A DNA stretch of 64,000 nucleotides from Ideonella sp. (GCF_035254525.1 NZ_DATFAN010000137.1:23417-87416); one strand, 5' to 3'. Positions 1 through 25,408 are shown, counted from the stretch's first letter. Numbers and translations are program-made. Notes: generated by a model not told the origin, from the letters alone.

Positions 1-21
1 GGGTATCGAAATCGCGCCGCC

Positions 22-45
22 TAGAATCTTTGTGCAATCGCACAA
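22..45 (+). promoter_or_regulatory. phaR promoter -10 (TAGAAT, 22-27) followed by the palindrome TTGTGC-AATC-GCACAA (30-45), likely a PhaR autoregulatory operator
   Basis: Perfect 6-bp inverted repeat with TGC-N4-GCA core just downstream of a -10 hexamer, upstream of phaR. PhaR proteins are known to autoregulate through TGC/GCA inverted repeats. Confidence 0.6.
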
Positions 46-96
46 TCCCACCCACGTCCGCAGCGCACAACCCGCCTGCCCAAGGAGTCCCGCCGC

Positions 97-684
97 ATGT
101 CCACCGCCCGCCGCACTGCCGCCGACGCCGCTCCTGCCGAGGCGACGGCACCGCGGGTGCTGAAGAAGTACCCGAACCGGCGGCTGTACGACACCAGCGC
201 GAGCACCTACATCACGCTGGCCGACGTCAAGCAGATGGTGCTCGAGGGCACCGAGTTCGAGGTGCGCGACGCCAAGACCGGCGACGACCTGACCCGCAGC
301 ATCCTGCTGCAGATCATCCTCGAGGAAGAGACCGGCGGCGCGCCGATGTTCACCGCCAACATGCTGGCGCAGATCATCCGGTTCTACGGCCATGCGATGC
401 AGGGCATGATGGGTTCGTACCTCGAGAAGAACCTGCAGACCTTCGTCGAGATGCAGGCCCGGCTGGCCGACCAGGCGCGCGGCCTGTACGACCCCAAGGC
501 CTTCACGCCCGAGATGTGGGCCCAGTTCATGAGCGGCCAGGCGCCGGTGATGCAGGGCCTGATGGGCAACTACCTCGAGCAGTCGAAGAACCTGTTCATG
601 CAGATGCAGGAGCAGATGCAGAAGCAGACCGGTGGGCTGATCCCCGGGTTCCCGGGCTTTCCGCCGCCGCCCTCGCAGAAGTAG
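97..684 (+). CDS. phaR: Polyhydroxyalkanoate synthesis repressor PhaR
   Basis: N-terminal KKYPNRRLYDTSASTYITL DNA-binding motif; Gln/Met-rich PHB-accumulation domain. Confidence 0.95.
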   Translation: MSTARRTAADAAPAEATAPRVLKKYPNRRLYDTSASTYITLADVKQMVLEGTEFEVRDAKTGDDLTRSILLQIILEEETGGAPMFTANMLAQIIRFYGHAMQGMMGSYLEKNLQTFVEMQARLADQARGLYDPKAFTPEMWAQFMSGQAPVMQGLMGNYLEQSKNLFMQMQEQMQKQTGGLIPGFPGFPPPPSQK

Positions 685-18875: not shown

Positions 18876-18928
18876 TTGATTATCTAGGGAAGGGTTAACG
18901 CTAGATTTTACTGACCTAACAGGCGAGT

Positions 18929-18970
18929 GAAGCGGTCCGGCGCGCGAGCGTACGGGCCGCTTCGTTTTTT
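18929..18970 (+). terminator. Rho-independent terminator of the ABC operon
   Basis: GAAGCGGTCCG...CGGGCCGCTTC stem followed by GTTTTTT. Confidence 0.8.
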
Positions 18971-19158
18971 GGCGCCCGGAGCATCGGTCGAGCTATTGAC
19001 TAGACAAGTTGATCTTCGCTGACGAAGTTGCTGCGTAAACACAACAGACTCCCCTCCAAAACGGGCCTAGAGGGTTTCCCGGGAGCGGGGCCAGAAAAGG
19101 GTTCAGTGACAATCCGGACACATGTTTTTGAGGTGAGTACATCCTGGCTTCACAAGAC

Positions 19159-19174
19159 CGGCATGTGACTTGCT
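19159..19174 (+). promoter_or_regulatory. Candidate sigma-54 (-24/-12) promoter of the TonB-dependent receptor
   Basis: CGGCATG-TGAC-TTGCT versus consensus TGGCACG-N4-TTGCW; exact GG-N10-GC spacing; AGGAG RBS at 19211-19215. Confidence 0.55.
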
Positions 19175-19223
19175 TCGAAGCAGGGTCTATCGATCAACCT
19201 TCCCTTACTCAGGAGTGGTACGT

Positions 19224-22142
19224 ATGTTCCAGAAAACAAAGCTCTGCACGAGCTTGCTGCTCGCCTTCAGTGGCGGGATGATCCTGGCGTCCGGCTCGGC
19301 CTCCGCGCAAGAGCGCGTCGAGATCACGGGTTCGCGCATCAAGACCGTTCAGACCGAAGGCACGTCGCCGGTGGTCGTGCTGGGCAAGGAAGCAATTCAG
19401 CTCGAGGGCGTGCGCAACGCCGAGCAACTGCTGAACAACCTGCCGCAGGTCTTCGCCGATCAGGGCGGCAGCGTGTCGAACGGCGCAACGGGTACTGCGA
19501 CCGTCAACCTGCGCAACCTCGGCTCGAACCGGACTCTGGTCCTGGTCAACGGCCGCCGCCTGCCTGGCGGGAGCCCGCGCGATATTTCCACTGACTTGAA
19601 CCAGATTCCGGTTTCGCTGATCAAGCGCGTCGAAATCCTGACCGGTGGTGCCTCGGCCATTTACGGTTCTGACGCCGTGGCGGGTGTGGTGAACTTCATC
19701 CTCGACGACAAGTTCGAGGGCGTTCAGATCGACCTGAACCATGAGTTCTACAACCACCAGCAGCACGCGTCCCAGGGCATCAAGGACGCCAACGCGGCCC
19801 GCCAATTCGCGCTGCCGGGCGACAAGGGCGCCGATGGCAAGGTCACCGACTTCAACTTGACCTTGGGCGGGAACTTCGCCGACGGCAAGGGCAATGCGGT
19901 CCTGTTCTTCGCCCACAAGACGGAAGACGCGTTGCGTGAGGACCAGCGGGACTTCTCGAACTGCGCGCTGCTCGCCGTTGGCGGGCAATGGACGTGCGGC
20001 GGTTCGTCAACTGCCTACCCCGGCCGGTTCATCGACCTTGCCGAAGACGGTGGTGACTGGAACCTGGGCCCCGACGGCGCTCCCCGTCCCTGGGTGGGCT
20101 CGCGCGATCAATACAACTACGCACCGTCCAACTACTTCCAGCGACCGTCTGATCGCTACAGTGTCCAGGCGCTGGCGCACTATGATCTAGCCGATTACGC
20201 GCGTGTCTACGGTGAGTTCTCGTTCCACGACGATCACACCGTGGCTCAAATTGCCCCGAGCGGCATCTTCCTCGGTGGCTTCGTGACCACGGTCGACTAC
20301 GACAACCCACTGTTGTCCGATGCCTGGAAGGCTGCGCTGAATCTGACCGCTTCGGGCGACACCGCTGATCTGTTCATCGGTCGACGCAACGTCGAAGGCG
20401 GCGGTCGGCAGGACGACATTCGCCACAGTTCCTACCGCGGCGTGATCGGCGTCAAGGGCGACATCAATGACGCATGGAGCTATGACGTGTCGGCCCTGGT
20501 CGGCAAGGTGCTCTACCAGGAAACCTACAAGAACGACTTCTCCAACACGCGCCTGCTGCGCGCCTTGGACGTGGTCGACGACGGCGCGGGCAACGCGGTC
20601 TGCCGCTCGGCCCTCGATGGCACCGACCCGAACTGTGTGCCGTACAACATCTGGTCGATCGGCGGCGTGACGCCGCAGGCGCTAGCCTACCTGCAGACGC
20701 CGGGGTTCCAAAAGGGCTTCACGTCGACCGAAGTGATTTCGGCTTCCGTCAACGGTGACCTGACGGGTTATGGTGTGAAGACGCCGTGGGCCAAGTCCGG
20801 TCTCGGCGTGGCGCTCGGTGTCGAGCACCGCACCGAAGAGATGGACCTCAGCACCGACACCGCGTTCACCACCGGCGACCTGGCCGGCCAAGGTGGCCCG
20901 ACGATCGGCGTGGGCGGCGCGTTTGACGTGACCGACGTCTTCACCGAAATGCGCATGCCGCTGATCGAGAAGGCTCCGTTCGCCGAACTGCTGGCGCTCA
21001 ATGCGAGCTACCGCTATTCGGACTACAGCACTGGCAAGAAGACGAGCACCTGGGGTGTGGGCGTCGAATGGGCTCCGATGAACGAGTTCAAGGTTCGTGC
21101 CAGCGCCCAGCGCGCTTCGCGCGCCGCCAACATCATCGAACTGTTCTCGCAGGCGGCTCTGGGTCTTTATGACAACGAGACAGGTGATCCTTGTGCCGGT
21201 GACTTCGACGCCGGGACGTCCACTCCGCCACCAACCGCGACAGCTGAACAGTGCGCCCGCACCGGGGTGTCAGCGGCGCAGTACGGTCACATTCGTGGAA
21301 ACCCGGCCGGTCAGTACAACGCCATCTTTGGTGGCAACGCGAACCTTTCGCCGGAAACCTCGAAGAGCTGGACCGTCGGCTTCGTGGTCAATCCGATCAG
21401 GGACATGAACCTGACCCTGGATTGGTTCCACATCCGTGTCGATGACATCATCGGCAACATCCCGGCCACGAGCATCCTGAACCAGTGTCTGGAGACCGGC
21501 GATTCGTTCTACTGCAACTTGGTGCACCGCAGCAGCCTGACCGGTGATCTGTGGACGGGTACGCCGCCGGATGGTGGCTTCATCGTTGCCACGAACAGCA
21601 ACCTGTCGTTCAAAGAGACCGAAGGCTTCGACGTCGGCGCCGACTACCAGCTCCGGCTGGAAGGTATGGGGCGCATTGACTTCACCTTCAAGGGCACGTT
21701 GCTGAGCAAATTCGAGGCGGAGGACGCCCCGGGATTCGGCTCCTACGACTGCGCTGGCTACTACGGCGGCACCTGCGGAACGCCGGCACCCAAGTGGCGG
21801 CACTCGCTGCGCACGACCTGGCGCTCGCCGTGGAACCTGGACCTGTCTCTGAACTGGCGCTACATCGATTCGGTGAAGAACGAAGGGATGAGTTCGAACC
21901 CGTTGCTGAACGGCGAAGTCGACCCGCTGGTCGCGAAACTGAAGTCCATCAGCTATTTCGACGTGGGTGCTTCGTACAAGGCGACGAAGAACATCACGTT
22001 GTCTGCCGCGATCAACAACATCCTCGACACCGACCCGCCGATCCGCAACAACGGTGCTGGCTTCACGAACGGCAACACCTACCCGGTGGTGTACGACGCC
22101 CTGGGTCGTCGCGTTTCGCTGACGCTGAACGCAAAGTTCTGA
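19224..22142 (+). CDS. Large TonB-dependent outer-membrane receptor with five cysteine pairs
   Basis: Signal peptide, TonB box (ERVEITGS), plug motifs (VNLRNLGSNRTLVLVNGRR, RVEILTGGASAIYGSDAVAGVVNFI), C-terminal Phe (LNAKF). Confidence 0.95.
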   Translation: MFQKTKLCTSLLLAFSGGMILASGSASAQERVEITGSRIKTVQTEGTSPVVVLGKEAIQLEGVRNAEQLLNNLPQVFADQGGSVSNGATGTATVNLRNLGSNRTLVLVNGRRLPGGSPRDISTDLNQIPVSLIKRVEILTGGASAIYGSDAVAGVVNFILDDKFEGVQIDLNHEFYNHQQHASQGIKDANAARQFALPGDKGADGKVTDFNLTLGGNFADGKGNAVLFFAHKTEDALREDQRDFSNCALLAVGGQWTCGGSSTAYPGRFIDLAEDGGDWNLGPDGAPRPWVGSRDQYNYAPSNYFQRPSDRYSVQALAHYDLADYARVYGEFSFHDDHTVAQIAPSGIFLGGFVTTVDYDNPLLSDAWKAALNLTASGDTADLFIGRRNVEGGGRQDDIRHSSYRGVIGVKGDINDAWSYDVSALVGKVLYQETYKNDFSNTRLLRALDVVDDGAGNAVCRSALDGTDPNCVPYNIWSIGGVTPQALAYLQTPGFQKGFTSTEVISASVNGDLTGYGVKTPWAKSGLGVALGVEHRTEEMDLSTDTAFTTGDLAGQGGPTIGVGGAFDVTDVFTEMRMPLIEKAPFAELLALNASYRYSDYSTGKKTSTWGVGVEWAPMNEFKVRASAQRASRAANIIELFSQAALGLYDNETGDPCAGDFDAGTSTPPPTATAEQCARTGVSAAQYGHIRGNPAGQYNAIFGGNANLSPETSKSWTVGFVVNPIRDMNLTLDWFHIRVDDIIGNIPATSILNQCLETGDSFYCNLVHRSSLTGDLWTGTPPDGGFIVATNSNLSFKETEGFDVGADYQLRLEGMGRIDFTFKGTLLSKFEAEDAPGFGSYDCAGYYGGTCGTPAPKWRHSLRTTWRSPWNLDLSLNWRYIDSVKNEGMSSNPLLNGEVDPLVAKLKSISYFDVGASYKATKNITLSAAINNILDTDPPIRNNGAGFTNGNTYPVVYDALGRRVSLTLNAKF

Positions 22143-22170
22143 TCTGAACCGGCGGTTACCGGTCACAAGG

Positions 22171-22204
22171 AAAAGGGGACGCCATGGGCGCCCCCTTTTT
22201 TTTT
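22171..22204. terminator. Bidirectional intrinsic terminator between the receptor and the sulfotransferase-like gene
   Basis: AAAAGGGGACGCC-ATG-GGCGCCCCC-T9, with an A-tract on the left and a T-tract on the right. Confidence 0.85.
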
Positions 22205-22219
22205 GCGGGGCATGGCCCC

Positions 22220-23176
22220 TCAGGCCGTGGGCGACATTCTGTCAATCAGCCGGGCGTATGCCGGCCTGGCGATCTCGTCAATGGCCCGGCGCAGTTCGGG
22301 CGTGGCCTCGGCACGCTTGCGTTCACCGTCCGGAACGAACACGTCGGTTGGCCGACCGACCTGCGACTTCGAGTGGTGTCGAGACGCGATCATCATGGTT
22401 TGCCTGGAAGCATCGGCAACAGGCAAACCAAAGTGAGCTGCCAGGCGGTTCCACACCGCATCCGGCAGCGATTCATAAGGCATCAGTACGCCTCGTGTCG
22501 GATCGAGTCGGCCTGCGGCATCGCAGAACGCCGCGAAGACGCTGGCCAATTCGTGTTCGGCAGTTCGTGGCTCGACGCCGGGAGCGACGAATCCCGAGAA
22601 CAACGCCGCGTACCGGTCGCGCAACCAACCTGGCTGGCGCTGCTGCAGCGATACACAGACTTCGAGCGGATCACGGATGCACAGTGCCCATGGCGTTCGA
22701 GGGAAGGCCTCAGCCACGATGTCGCAGAAGAGCGTGTTCCAGCTCGAGAGCTTGAGCACATAGGGCGACCCTGCGTGCACGGCAAAGTGATGACCGACGG
22801 TGCGTAATGCCGCCACCAATTCATCGCGTGTTCCGGCGTGTGGAGGAACGAGCAGTTCGCTGACCGCCAGGGGCTCGGAGTAGACGACCGACTCTCCCCG
22901 CAGTTTCAGCAACTGGGAAACGAGCGTCGATCCGCAGCGTGCAACGTGGAAGATCACGCCCGCCGGGGCGGTGGAGGAGAGCGGCCGACCCAGTTGCGAC
23001 TTCGGCACATGGATCACAGAGTGCGTGGCTCGCAGGCGGAGTACCGTGTCCTGCAGGAAAGGGTCGCGCAGTTCATCGCGCGCAATATCGACAAGCGCAA
23101 GGTGCAGGCCTGTCGCATCGAGTGCCGATCGTGCGGGCAGGCCCGGCGAGTCGGGGGCAGGCATCAGCGGGGCCAT
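22220..23176 (-). CDS. Sulfotransferase-fold (PAPS-binding) protein of unknown specificity
   Basis: 5'-PSB-like FHVARCGSTLVSQLL, SEP, LKLSSW and 3'-PB-like IRDPLEVCVS; no signal peptide. Confidence 0.7.
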   Translation of the reverse strand: MAPLMPAPDSPGLPARSALDATGLHLALVDIARDELRDPFLQDTVLRLRATHSVIHVPKSQLGRPLSSTAPAGVIFHVARCGSTLVSQLLKLRGESVVYSEPLAVSELLVPPHAGTRDELVAALRTVGHHFAVHAGSPYVLKLSSWNTLFCDIVAEAFPRTPWALCIRDPLEVCVSLQQRQPGWLRDRYAALFSGFVAPGVEPRTAEHELASVFAAFCDAAGRLDPTRGVLMPYESLPDAVWNRLAAHFGLPVADASRQTMMIASRHHSKSQVGRPTDVFVPDGERKRAEATPELRRAIDEIARPAYARLIDRMSPTA

Positions 23177-23179
23177 CGG

Positions 23180-24358
23180 TCAGCGCATCTCGGTTTCGAC
23201 GATGGCGCCAACCTGAAGGAGCTGCTGCAACACGGCTTGCAGCTCGCGTTCGTCGATGAACGGAAAACGCGCAATCAAGTCGTCGCCCGAGAAGAGCTTC
23301 TGTTGCAGCAACCAGCTGACCGCCTGGTAGCAGGCGCCGACGTCGATCCGCGCATGGTCGATCTGCACGCTGAAGCCTTCGTGACGGCGTTCAACCCGGC
23401 CCCTCTTGGTGGTCGAGTAGTACTGCGCCCGCGTTCGTGCCGGTAACTCGAACGTGGCAGATGACGTCGCGAGCGATCGTTGATGGTTGCGGACCTCGAC
23501 GGCAAACGAGGGCGAGGTCATCAAGCGTTCGAGTTGTTGCGCCAATCGAGCAAGGTGCCTGCCGAGTTCGGCGGCGTTACTCGCATCCGGCAGGTATGCC
23601 CTGAATTCGCTGTCCAGGGCAGCGTCTGCTTCAAGCAACTTGAAGAGCGACAGCCCGGTAGCGGGTTTGACCCAGAACGTCACGTGCAGCGATGCATCGG
23701 CGCCGGTGACTGCGTCGTGATACTGCCCCCGCGGCAGGTACAACAAGTCGCCGGGCTTCATCAGAACTTCCTGCAGGACCCTGCCTCGGCTGGCGACGAG
23801 CCACTTCTCCGCCTCGTCGCCAGGCGGCAGGCTCGCCATCGGGTTGTCCGCACGCGCCTCGTAGATGCGCCAGAGCTTTTCGCCCTCGGTTTGGAGGGCG
23901 AACACGTCGTGCAAGTCGTAGTGCGTATTGAACGCCTGCACGCCCTGAAACGAGCAGTACACGTTCGCACCGGCACTGGCTGCGAACTCCCGCTGCAGCA
24001 TTTGCACCAGATGAGCCGCATCAGGCGACACGCGCTGGATCTGATTGGCCACGAGGCTGGCACCAAACCCAAGCAGCGCCTTGACCTTGCGCGGATTGGC
24101 GGGTGCCTTCTCGCCGGGCGCGATCTCGCCGACATCACAGTAGTTGTCGCGCAGGGCGAGCCTGTTTTGATAGAAGACCTTCAGCGTGTCTTCATTCCAA
24201 AAGGCGGTGAGTTCGAGTATGTCGTTGAGGCGTCGCCAAGTCAGTGGATTGTCGAGGGTGCGCCCGCGAGCATCGAGGTGCAGCGGCTTCTTGCCGTAAT
24301 AGTGGCTCTTGAACTCGACTGGGTCGAACGGCGCGAGAAACTCGGCGAAATTAGGCAT
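23180..24358 (-). CDS. JmjC/cupin-4 2-oxoglutarate Fe(II) oxygenase (YcfD/ROX-like)
   Basis: F...YYGKKPLHL N-terminus, HYD facial-triad motif, DVFALQTEGEKLWRIY, MKPGDLLYLPRGQYH distal His. Confidence 0.88.
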   Translation of the reverse strand: MPNFAEFLAPFDPVEFKSHYYGKKPLHLDARGRTLDNPLTWRRLNDILELTAFWNEDTLKVFYQNRLALRDNYCDVGEIAPGEKAPANPRKVKALLGFGASLVANQIQRVSPDAAHLVQMLQREFAASAGANVYCSFQGVQAFNTHYDLHDVFALQTEGEKLWRIYEARADNPMASLPPGDEAEKWLVASRGRVLQEVLMKPGDLLYLPRGQYHDAVTGADASLHVTFWVKPATGLSLFKLLEADAALDSEFRAYLPDASNAAELGRHLARLAQQLERLMTSPSFAVEVRNHQRSLATSSATFELPARTRAQYYSTTKRGRVERRHEGFSVQIDHARIDVGACYQAVSWLLQQKLFSGDDLIARFPFIDERELQAVLQQLLQVGAIVETEMR

Positions 24359-24463
24359 ACGACTCAGGCATCATAGCGTGTCGGCCTGCCGCAGCTGACC
24401 TGTGCACGGCTCGTCACGCGGGCAGTTGGCGGTCATTGTCCAATCGCCATCGAAGTCTTCGCA

Positions 24464-25372
24464 ATGACACCACTTCCCTCCACCGATTTGCCGGCCACCG
24501 ACCAGCAGGCTTGGTCGCGATACTGGGCGGCGGTTGCACCCGAAGCTGCTGGCTGCCTGCCGGGTCTGCCCGGGTCGATTGCAGGGCTTTTCGAATCGCG
24601 CTGGAGCGCGTACTTTCGCAGCCTGCCGCGTGGGGCGCTGGTATTGGACCTGGGCACCGGCGGCGGCGCAGTGCCGCGATTGGCAGCAAGCCTGGATCTG
24701 GGGTTGAAGCTCGTGGGCGTCGATTACGCCGATGTCGTGCCGGTCAACGACGACCCAGGAATCGAGTACAGGGGGCGGGTGGACATGAGGGCGCTGCCCT
24801 TTGTCGATGGCCACTTCGATGCAGTGACGAGCCAGTTCTCGATCGAATACGTTGGCATGGAGGCCGTGGACGAACTGCTGCGGGTTCTGTCAGATCGGGG
24901 CTCCTTCATGATCATCGCCCACCACGCGGACAGTGTGGTGCTGGACCAGAACAGGAAGCGCCTGTTGGCATTGGAGGGCCTGCTCGCCGAGGGGGGGATA
25001 GTGCAGTCCGCGCGGATTGCAGTCGATGCGGGCCGAGAAAGAGACCAAGCGACGCGCCACGACCTGGCCGGCCAATTGAAGGCGCTCAGGCTCCAACACG
25101 AGGGTCAGGGGGTCGTCGAGGAGATTTCAGGCTTGGTGGCGCGCATGATGCTGGAGCCTGATGCGCGCGCTGGTCTGCAGTGGCTGCATTCGCAGGCCCG
25201 AATGGAACAGGTTCGCCTTCGTGCGCTCTCGGCAGCCGCGTTGGACGAATCCTCGGTTGCCGCCTTGAGGGCCAGGCTCGCGCGACCGGGTCGGGCCGTC
25301 AGCTGCAATGTGATGTCGGCGCCGGAACTGGGGATGCCGATCGCCTGGCATCTCCAATCGCCGGCCTGGTGA
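24464..25372 (+). CDS. Class I SAM-dependent methyltransferase with helical C-terminal extension
   Basis: Motif I VLDLGTGGG, GVD, LPFVDGHFDAVTSQFSIEY. Confidence 0.85.
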   Translation: MTPLPSTDLPATDQQAWSRYWAAVAPEAAGCLPGLPGSIAGLFESRWSAYFRSLPRGALVLDLGTGGGAVPRLAASLDLGLKLVGVDYADVVPVNDDPGIEYRGRVDMRALPFVDGHFDAVTSQFSIEYVGMEAVDELLRVLSDRGSFMIIAHHADSVVLDQNRKRLLALEGLLAEGGIVQSARIAVDAGRERDQATRHDLAGQLKALRLQHEGQGVVEEISGLVARMMLEPDARAGLQWLHSQARMEQVRLRALSAAALDESSVAALRARLARPGRAVSCNVMSAPELGMPIAWHLQSPAW

Positions 25373-25408
25373 GCATCCATGCAGGGTCCGGTCCAACCGA
25401 TCCGCTGA

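Follow-up and report, generated by a model that had tools for sequence, protein, structure and literature searches.

The stretch of DNA analysed here (the window, 64,000 nucleotides from Ideonella sp., GCF_035254525.1 NZ_DATFAN010000137.1:23417-87416) carries two neighbouring genes that form our subject, one encoding a protein with a sulfotransferase fold and the other a JmjC_2 oxygenase dependent on Fe(II) and 2-oxoglutarate (2OG) (Table 1). An earlier note, made from the sequence alone, had described the first as a stand-alone, atypical sulfotransferase-fold protein that might sulfate a hydroxyl newly made by the second. Is the protein a sulfotransferase, and do the two enzymes work together? 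The sulfotransferase open reading frame (ORF) at 22220-23176 on the minus strand is confirmed as genuine. Its true start may be M5 at position 23164, because M5 is where the homologues begin in an alignment of 36 sequences (A1); this would give a product of 314 aa and a gap of 15 nt to the JmjC gene. Counted from the first ATG, 3 nt separate the sulfotransferase gene from the end of the JmjC gene, which lies directly upstream in the same operon.

Table 1. Features at and around the sulfotransferase gene, in window coordinates.
Feature	Coordinates	Strand	Basis and remarks
Sulfotransferase-fold gene	22220..23176	minus	ATG-initiated ORF, 318 aa
JmjC_2 (ribosomal-oxygenase/ROX-like) Fe(II)/2OG oxygenase gene	23180..24358	minus	392 aa; Pfam JmjC_2, 89 bits
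GC-rich hairpin	22171..22204		plus strand with a T9 run, minus strand with 4 nt of T; sequence reading
TonB-dependent receptor gene	19170..22142	plus	Pfam Plug and TonB_dep_Rec_b-barrel; convergent with the sulfotransferase gene
Class I S-adenosylmethionine (SAM) methyltransferase gene	24464..25372	plus	Pfam Methyltransf_11; divergent from the JmjC gene, 105-bp gap

The two loops from which binding of 3'-phosphoadenosine 5'-phosphosulfate (PAPS) had been suggested, FHVARCGST (residues 76-84) and RDPLEVCVS (residues 168-176), are both present and near-invariant. In A1, which also served as input for an AlphaFold2 model, F76, H77, R80, C81, G82, S83, T84, R168, P170, V173, V175 and S176 do not vary. 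Across a wider set, 119 distant representatives whose identity with the window protein is 24-50% (median 31%), the loop that binds the 5'-phosphosulfate (5'-PSB loop) is kept, with R80 in 93%, C81 in 94%, G82 in 99%, S83 in 98% and T84 in 95%, as is the 3'-phosphate motif (R168 100%, S176 98%); H77 (95%), E101 (95%) and K142 (100%) are likewise retained, together with the C-terminal residues K270 (94%), D283 (94%) and K287 (91%). Judged from these alignments, conservation of the motifs is far beyond chance.

The AlphaFold2 model of the window protein (mean pLDDT 93.7, pTM 0.92) consists of a single sulfotransferase domain and an additional N-terminal beta-beta-alpha-beta subdomain of ~65 aa (residues 1-65), and it places R80-C-G-S83-T84 after strand 73-77 and before helix 83-91. 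The protein stands alone, free of tetratricopeptide repeat (TPR) or hydroxylase fusions, as had been described, and its N-terminus reads as lacking any hydrophobic signal-like stretch, in keeping with the claimed absence of a signal peptide. A Foldseek comparison, which the earlier note had suggested as a check on the fold, agrees with it: all 61 matches listed at E<=1e-3 are PAPS-dependent sulfotransferases, with tyrosylprotein sulfotransferases (TPSTs) on top. With VIA-align the best match is human TPST1 (5wrj; Z 15.1, root-mean-square deviation 3.5 Å over 219 residues, model residues 65-312), and all of the best 50 rows are sulfotransferases. In the structural alignments, identity to TPSTs is 15-19%. 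From R80 to E101 the window protein counts 21 residues and from R168 to S176 eight, spacings that we take to equal those of the TPST2 counterparts (R78 to E99, R183 to S191); E101 and K142 presumably occupy the positions of Glu99 and Lys158 in TPST2 numbering. A catalytic role has been assigned to Arg78, Glu99 and Lys158 of TPST2 (PMC10951654).

Searches with sequences and profiles gave a sparser picture. PF00685 (Sulfotransfer_1) did not match the window protein at E<=1 in the Pfam search, and many homologues bear a precomputed match to PF13469 (Sulfotransfer_3). When compared by hhalign with one Sulfotransfer_3 protein of its own genome, the family gave an insignificant result (probability 2%); with a second, canonical one it gave E 6e-5 over 43 columns only, around the 3'-phosphate-binding (3'-PB) motif, where K142...RDPxEVxVS of the window protein falls onto RDPxDVxxS. 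On the strength of the modelled fold and the conserved motifs, we consider PAPS-dependent sulfotransferase activity of the window protein highly probable.

How large is the group to which it belongs? A word-indexed search recovered at least 618 homologues at 50-74% identity, above all from Steroidobacteraceae but also from Ideonella, Aquabacterium and other Betaproteobacteria, nearly all of them proteins without a name, and an exhaustive profile search yielded 3,769 clusters at 50% identity with E<=1e-3, 846 of them with E<=1e-30. By sequence the window protein is a member of a large, divergent branch of the sulfotransferase superfamily that the domain libraries do not model, and by comparison of the predicted structure the nearest solved relatives of this branch are the TPSTs. 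Within the window's own genus the gene is carried by one of the 24 other species searched, and that carrier (genome G024) has the same island, in which the receptor, sulfotransferase and JmjC genes are followed by a gene for a TPR-Asp/Asn hydroxylase.

The JmjC gene is a far more constant companion than its mere adjacency in the window, already pointed out in the earlier note, would suggest. We surveyed 80 loci from named genome assemblies of Beta-, Gamma- and Alphaproteobacteria, and at all 78 that could be assessed a JmjC homologue (~390 aa, 41-76% identical to that of the window) adjoins the sulfotransferase gene within ~600 bp; the remaining two loci are not assessable, being cut off by a contig end at distances of 74 and 108 bp from the gene. 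The two genes are divergent at 68 loci, at 9 they are co-directional with JmjC upstream, and at 1 JmjC lies downstream; by a crude gene call they are surrounded by 64 different combinations of flanks, which include the groESL-glnE slot in many Steroidobacteraceae as well as islands with TonB-dependent receptors. Among solved structures the JmjC protein is closest to NO66 and MINA53 (E 1e-17), two protein histidyl hydroxylases, and the HxD...H positions fall into register. A second JmjC_2 paralogue is encoded in the window's genome (G000:C146:7309-7650; L008:1006-2148, minus strand; 125 bits against the Pfam model) and probably serves as the YcfD/RoxA-type housekeeping enzyme, so that the copy in the window would be an accessory paralogue.

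The same two domains are also joined in nature. JmjC_2-sulfotransferase fusions of 727-762 aa (P0175, P0202, P0244, P0247 and P0257) occur in Acidobacteriaceae, including Granulicella aggregans; they were recovered by an exhaustive search of representatives, having been missed by the word-indexed search for longer homologues. Their domain order, JmjC then sulfotransferase, is the gene order of the window. P0247 aligns with the whole window sulfotransferase at 30% identity (E 5e-29) with the motifs kept, and its JmjC half matches the window's JmjC protein at 36% (E 1e-23), as against E 3e-8 for the genome's other JmjC_2 paralogue. The same sulfotransferase (ST) family is further found in 2OG-FeII_Oxy_3-ST, Asp_Arg_Hydrox-ST and ST-TPR fusions. 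Because adjacency holds at 78 of 78 assessable loci, through varied orientations and flanks, and because natural fusions exist whose halves match the two proteins, we regard it as very probable that the sulfotransferase and the JmjC enzyme are functionally coupled.

The loci of the fusions give hints as to the substrate. On a Logan contig (SRR12364837; L149, 7001-13552), a fusion identical to Granulicella aggregans WP_184223742.1 is the first gene of an operon and overlaps the start of a SagD-type YcaO gene by 8 nt (268 bits against a cut-off of 219); the next genes encode a leader-peptide-binding (SagC-like) protein of thiazole/oxazole peptide (TOMM) systems (55 against 37) and a SagB-family dehydrogenase of 759 aa (120 against 78; NCBIfam). 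By its predicted gene content this is a canonical TOMM operon, and no precursor-like ORF was found in the 14 kb examined at this locus. At another locus (L153) a small, Asp-rich, acidic ORF (1-231, plus strand), cut by the contig end, lies 50 bp upstream of a JmjC-ST fusion (281-2464) on the same strand and closes with D-Y-G-S after five or six Cys-Gly repeats; the ORF resembles the core of a TOMM-type precursor, or it could be a mere repeat in GC-rich DNA. As read from gene content, the fusion contexts support a ribosomal peptide as substrate, for the fusion clade. At yet another locus (L151:6633-11091), an Asp_Arg_Hydrox-ST fusion is encoded 2 kb from a protein with a phage tail-collar domain (PF07484).

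Where would the PAPS come from? No gene for an adenosine 5'-phosphosulfate (APS) kinase lies in the window, as the earlier note had observed, and the matches in the genome are found only on contigs C165 and C98, the window itself being on C137. One part of that account does not hold: the sulfur metabolism of a "host" is not at issue, because the window is bacterial chromosome and the genome encodes its own bifunctional CysN/CysC (contig C165, 1063 bits against a cut-off of 715), so that the PAPS would be the cell's own. All three JmjC-ST fusion loci examined have APS kinase genes at a distance of no more than 6 kb: a stand-alone gene 3.5 kb upstream of the Granulicella-type operon (L149), one 4.5 kb downstream of the fusion at L153, and CysD and CysN/CysC within 6 kb of the fusion at a third locus (L152). 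A compact operon elsewhere (L147:3101-6685) comprises genes for a PAPS synthase, a 68-aa ORF, a sulfotransferase of this family and a methyltransferase, with UbiX and an MqnA-like gene flanking. Its stand-alone family member, encoded directly after the PAPS synthase gene, is 32% identical to the window protein over the full length; the 68-aa ORF matched Nif11-leader models below threshold only, and its tail is without Ser, Thr or Tyr. Inferred from gene neighbourhood, the fusion and L147 contexts support the use of PAPS. The window's genome has twelve other Sulfotransfer_3 matches. Contig C165, which carries CysN/CysC, also has (~10-12 kb and 65-80 kb) at least four Sulfotransfer_3-type genes that lie within 15 kb of each other and may be a separate sulfation cluster.

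Around the pair, the window is bacterial chromosome: adk, kdsB, lpxK and exbBD are present, the order is syntenic with Ideonella, and a phage origin is thereby ruled out. The hairpin between the convergent receptor and sulfotransferase genes is probably a terminator shared by both, and the receptor gene likely starts at the ATG at 19224. No Fur box is visible by eye in the two promoter regions, for which no formal scan was made. The methyltransferase gene sits where Ideonella and the same-genus genome G024 have a gene for a TPR-Asp/Asn beta-hydroxylase, and the island of Ideonella sp. YS5 (L039) includes a methyltransferase 44% identical to that of the window. A dedicated partnership of sulfotransferase and methyltransferase was considered and rejected, the window's methyltransferase and the one beside a distant family member being not detectably related. 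The G+C content of the island (18876-25408) is 0.62-0.63 against 0.68-0.69 at the adjacent 16-18 kb and 26-28 kb; that of 12-16 kb is also lower, 0.63-0.66.

A TonB-dependent receptor is a recurrent, non-obligatory neighbour of the pair. At 19 of the 80 loci, spread over Beta-, Gamma- and Alphaproteobacteria, a homologue of the window's receptor is encoded no more than 10 kb from the pair (identity 30-86%, or 39-86% over the greater part of the length). At a subset of loci in these three classes the pair is accompanied by three to four further types of gene: the receptor, TPR-Asp/Asn beta-hydroxylases (one to three genes), TPR-Sulfotransfer_3 proteins and a PiuC-like 2OG oxygenase. Five genomes in which the pair stands alone encode receptors of 40-46% identity elsewhere, some flanked by TPR-hydroxylase or TPR-sulfotransferase genes. 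In same-genus relatives without the pair (L137-L144), the slot between a peptide ABC transporter operon and a short-chain dehydrogenase/reductase (SDR) gene holds other cassettes, with different TonB receptors (28-29% identity), TPR-AspH-like genes and methyltransferase-like genes.

We propose, with a probability of about 0.5, that the window protein is a cytoplasmic PAPS-dependent O-sulfotransferase and the working partner of the JmjC hydroxylase. The two enzymes would act as a unit and share one target, for which a peptide or protein of ribosomal origin, with its gene at another place in the genome, is the likeliest candidate. In the most economical order the JmjC enzyme would install a hydroxyl first, and the sulfotransferase would convert the new hydroxyl to a sulfate ester with PAPS supplied by the cell's own CysN/CysC. 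The separate parts of this proposal differ in strength. A peptide or protein is, somewhat more probably than not, the acceptor, because the partner is close to NO66 and MINA53, one fusion is part of a SagD/SagC/SagB operon, and a Cys-Gly ORF precedes another. Hydroxylation followed by sulfation of that very hydroxyl, the sequence of events put forward in the earlier note, is plausible because the sulfotransferase family is fused to three different hydroxylase families, and we hold it tentatively, at somewhat less than an even chance. More doubtful is the full extension of the proposal, in which the unit would install an undescribed +96 Da hydroxylation-O-sulfation on a single residue (side-chain carbon) of bacterial ribosomal peptides or proteins, acting as a bifunctional enzyme of TOMM clusters in Acidobacteria and as a free-standing, often receptor-linked pair in Proteobacteria.

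Several observations weigh against this proposal. Near the window pair there is no substrate gene, precursor peptide or enzyme that defines a class of peptides made on ribosomes and modified after translation (RiPPs); the intergenic gaps of 77, 3 and 105 bp around the pair leave no room for a precursor gene, crude gene calling with clustering showed no small ORF conserved beside the pair over the 80 loci, and a YcaO gene was not detected in the window's genome, which is 96% complete. RiPP context is found only around the distant Acidobacterial fusions (~30% identity) and may not transfer to Proteobacteria, and even there the small ORF at L153 has Ser and Tyr, so that direct sulfation is possible. 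Distant family members without an oxygenase neighbour occur, and the family is thus not dependent on a hydroxylase-made acceptor. The recurrent link to a TonB-dependent receptor is also compatible with a small-molecule or receptor-related role. The assignment of the enzyme itself has its weaker points as well: Pfam Sulfotransfer_3 (PF13469) scores 22.3 bits, below the gathering cut-off of 27, searches of PDB sequences with the single protein (phmmer) and with the family profile matched no sulfotransferase, and E101 as catalytic base and K142 as catalytic lysine are candidate residues proposed on the basis of motif spacing. Since, in addition, no NCBIfam model matches the window protein, "atypical" is a fair label for it.

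These observations leave several other explanations to be weighed. The two enzymes might share a substrate and yet modify it in parallel, the sulfotransferase acting on a pre-existing Tyr, Ser or Thr as TPST, RaxST and MbnS do, the JmjC enzyme hydroxylating a different residue, and the coupling lying in substrate recognition only. The nearest solved structures are indeed TPSTs, the D-Y-G-S end of the Cys-Gly-repeat ORF puts Tyr and Ser directly on offer, and there are the family members that lack an oxygenase neighbour; however, the Z differences among sulfotransferase subfamilies are small (15.1 versus 13-14), and repeated fusion to three unrelated hydroxylase families is simpler if the hydroxylases make the acceptor. 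We consider parallel chemistry rather unlikely, and give similarly little weight to a small-molecule pathway, in which the pair would tailor a compound that is non-ribosomal or imported: a sulfated, metallophore-like product that is secreted and then retaken by the TonB-dependent receptor, or a compound that enters through it. Such a pathway would account for the receptor near the pair at 19 of 80 loci in three proteobacterial classes, along with TPR-AspH, TPR-sulfotransferase and PiuC-like genes, for the receptors elsewhere in genomes with the pair alone, and for the distant family member among UbiX, MqnA-like and methyltransferase genes; methanobactin operons, too, combine a TonB-dependent transporter with the sulfotransferase MbnS (PMC3621798), but methanobactin is itself a ribosomal peptide. 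Moreover, the majority of loci lack a receptor within 10 kb, conservation with the pair extends to no scaffold synthase, exporter or inner-membrane importer, and ROX-clade JmjC enzymes of known substrate hydroxylate proteins.

Could the sulfate be a means rather than an end? On a hydroxyl made by the JmjC enzyme it might serve as a leaving group, which is then eliminated to leave a dehydro residue or a cyclised molecule, as in the cases of CurM, olefin synthase, SgdX2, LGS1 and retinol dehydratase. The structural neighbours include CurM and olefin-synthase domains (Z 13.3-13.4) as well as the "activating" SgdX2, and dehydro or heterocyclic residues are made in TOMM systems, the context of one fusion, but structural rank does not separate the subfamilies, no eliminating partner enzyme is conserved with the pair, and this reading, pure inference as it is, seems to us quite improbable. 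Least probable of all, and by our estimate very much so, is that the protein is no sulfotransferase, being either a kinase-like P-loop enzyme, the alternative raised in the earlier note, or a subunit that partners the JmjC enzyme without catalytic activity of its own. The sub-threshold Pfam score and the unusual loop with its near-invariant Cys and His (H77...R-C-G-S-T) would fit such a role. Against it, PAPS-synthesis genes neighbour four relatives; and the kinase-like form was rejected because the loop, H-V-A-R-C-G-S-T, lacks the Lys of Walker A GxxxxGK[ST], conservation of the 3'-phosphate motif, which is peculiar to PAPS enzymes, is at 98-100%, and the structural neighbours listed are all PAPS sulfotransferases, with no kinase among them.

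Sulfation of peptides and proteins in bacteria is rare and poorly understood, and the literature consulted names few peptide sulfotransferases: RaxST, the uncharacterised MbnS, and SslST. The present analysis defines a family that the libraries do not model (3,769 clusters at 50% identity), tied to Fe/2OG hydroxylases through both gene order and fusions, and it offers a concrete two-enzyme unit for a possible hydroxylation-sulfation modification. The pair is one fixed sub-module of gene islands that combine TonB receptors, hydroxylases and sulfotransferases, and the TOMM cluster of Granulicella aggregans is a place where substrate and product could be sought.

Among known sulfotransferases, the TPSTs (human TPST1 and TPST2 and tick TPST; 5wrj, 3ap1, 8w5z) are the best structural match, with Z 14-15 over ~220 residues (model residues 65-312), and share with the window protein the Arg-type 5'-PSB loop and the Arg...Ser motif of the 3'-PB site; if the favoured reading is right, both would also be directed at proteins or peptides. 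Unlike the TPSTs, with which it has no detectable sequence similarity, the window protein is cytoplasmic and bacterial, and has the extra ~65-aa N-terminal subdomain, a near-invariant Cys in the loop and an obligate oxygenase partner, and its acceptor need not be a tyrosine. RaxST (RaxX Tyr), MbnS (methanobactin Thr) and SslST/SscST (lanthipeptide Tyr) are PAPS enzymes that tailor ribosomal peptides, as the window protein would under the favoured reading, and the ssl and ssc clusters, like relatives of the window protein, have PAPS-synthesis genes co-located; for SslST, too, the closest structure is TPST1 5wrj (PMC11143521). MbnS has been assigned to PF00685 (PMC3621798), whereas the window protein has no match to that model and mbnA/B/C-like genes are absent from its neighbourhood. 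Further differences are that RaxST, MbnS and SslST/SscST show no pairing with or fusion to a JmjC oxygenase, and that the window has no visible precursor gene.

The closest precedent for the proposed chemistry is a prediction by Iyer, Abhiman, de Souza and Aravind in 2010. In the sections of that paper used here, sulfotransferases fused to FIH1-type JmjC domains in Monosiga are described, bacterial sulfotransferases are linked to 2OG dioxygenases, sometimes with PAPS synthetases and tail-collar proteins, and hydroxylation followed by sulfation is proposed (PMC2938197). The AspH-ST fusion of the present family with a Collar-domain neighbour (L151) fits the enzyme-substrate set outlined in those sections. 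For the MINA/No66/YcfD clade the same sections give ATP-grasp, phage-dioxygenase and RNA-enzyme neighbourhoods and do not mention pairing with a sulfotransferase (PMC2938197); nor do they describe the fixed JmjC_2-ST two-gene unit, the Acidobacterial fusion or its placement in a TOMM operon.

On the oxygenase side, the comparison is with the ribosomal oxygenases NO66/RIOX1, MINA53/RIOX2 and E. coli YcfD/RoxA. The partner of the window protein has their JmjC_2 domain, an HxD...H triad that aligns with NO66, and a similar length and C-terminal extension; it differs from them as the second paralogue in its genome, always beside a sulfotransferase. We know of no ROX enzyme with a sulfotransferase partner. 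The window's gene represents a divergent subfamily of sulfotransferases that is marked out by its obligate partner, a ROX-like oxygenase.

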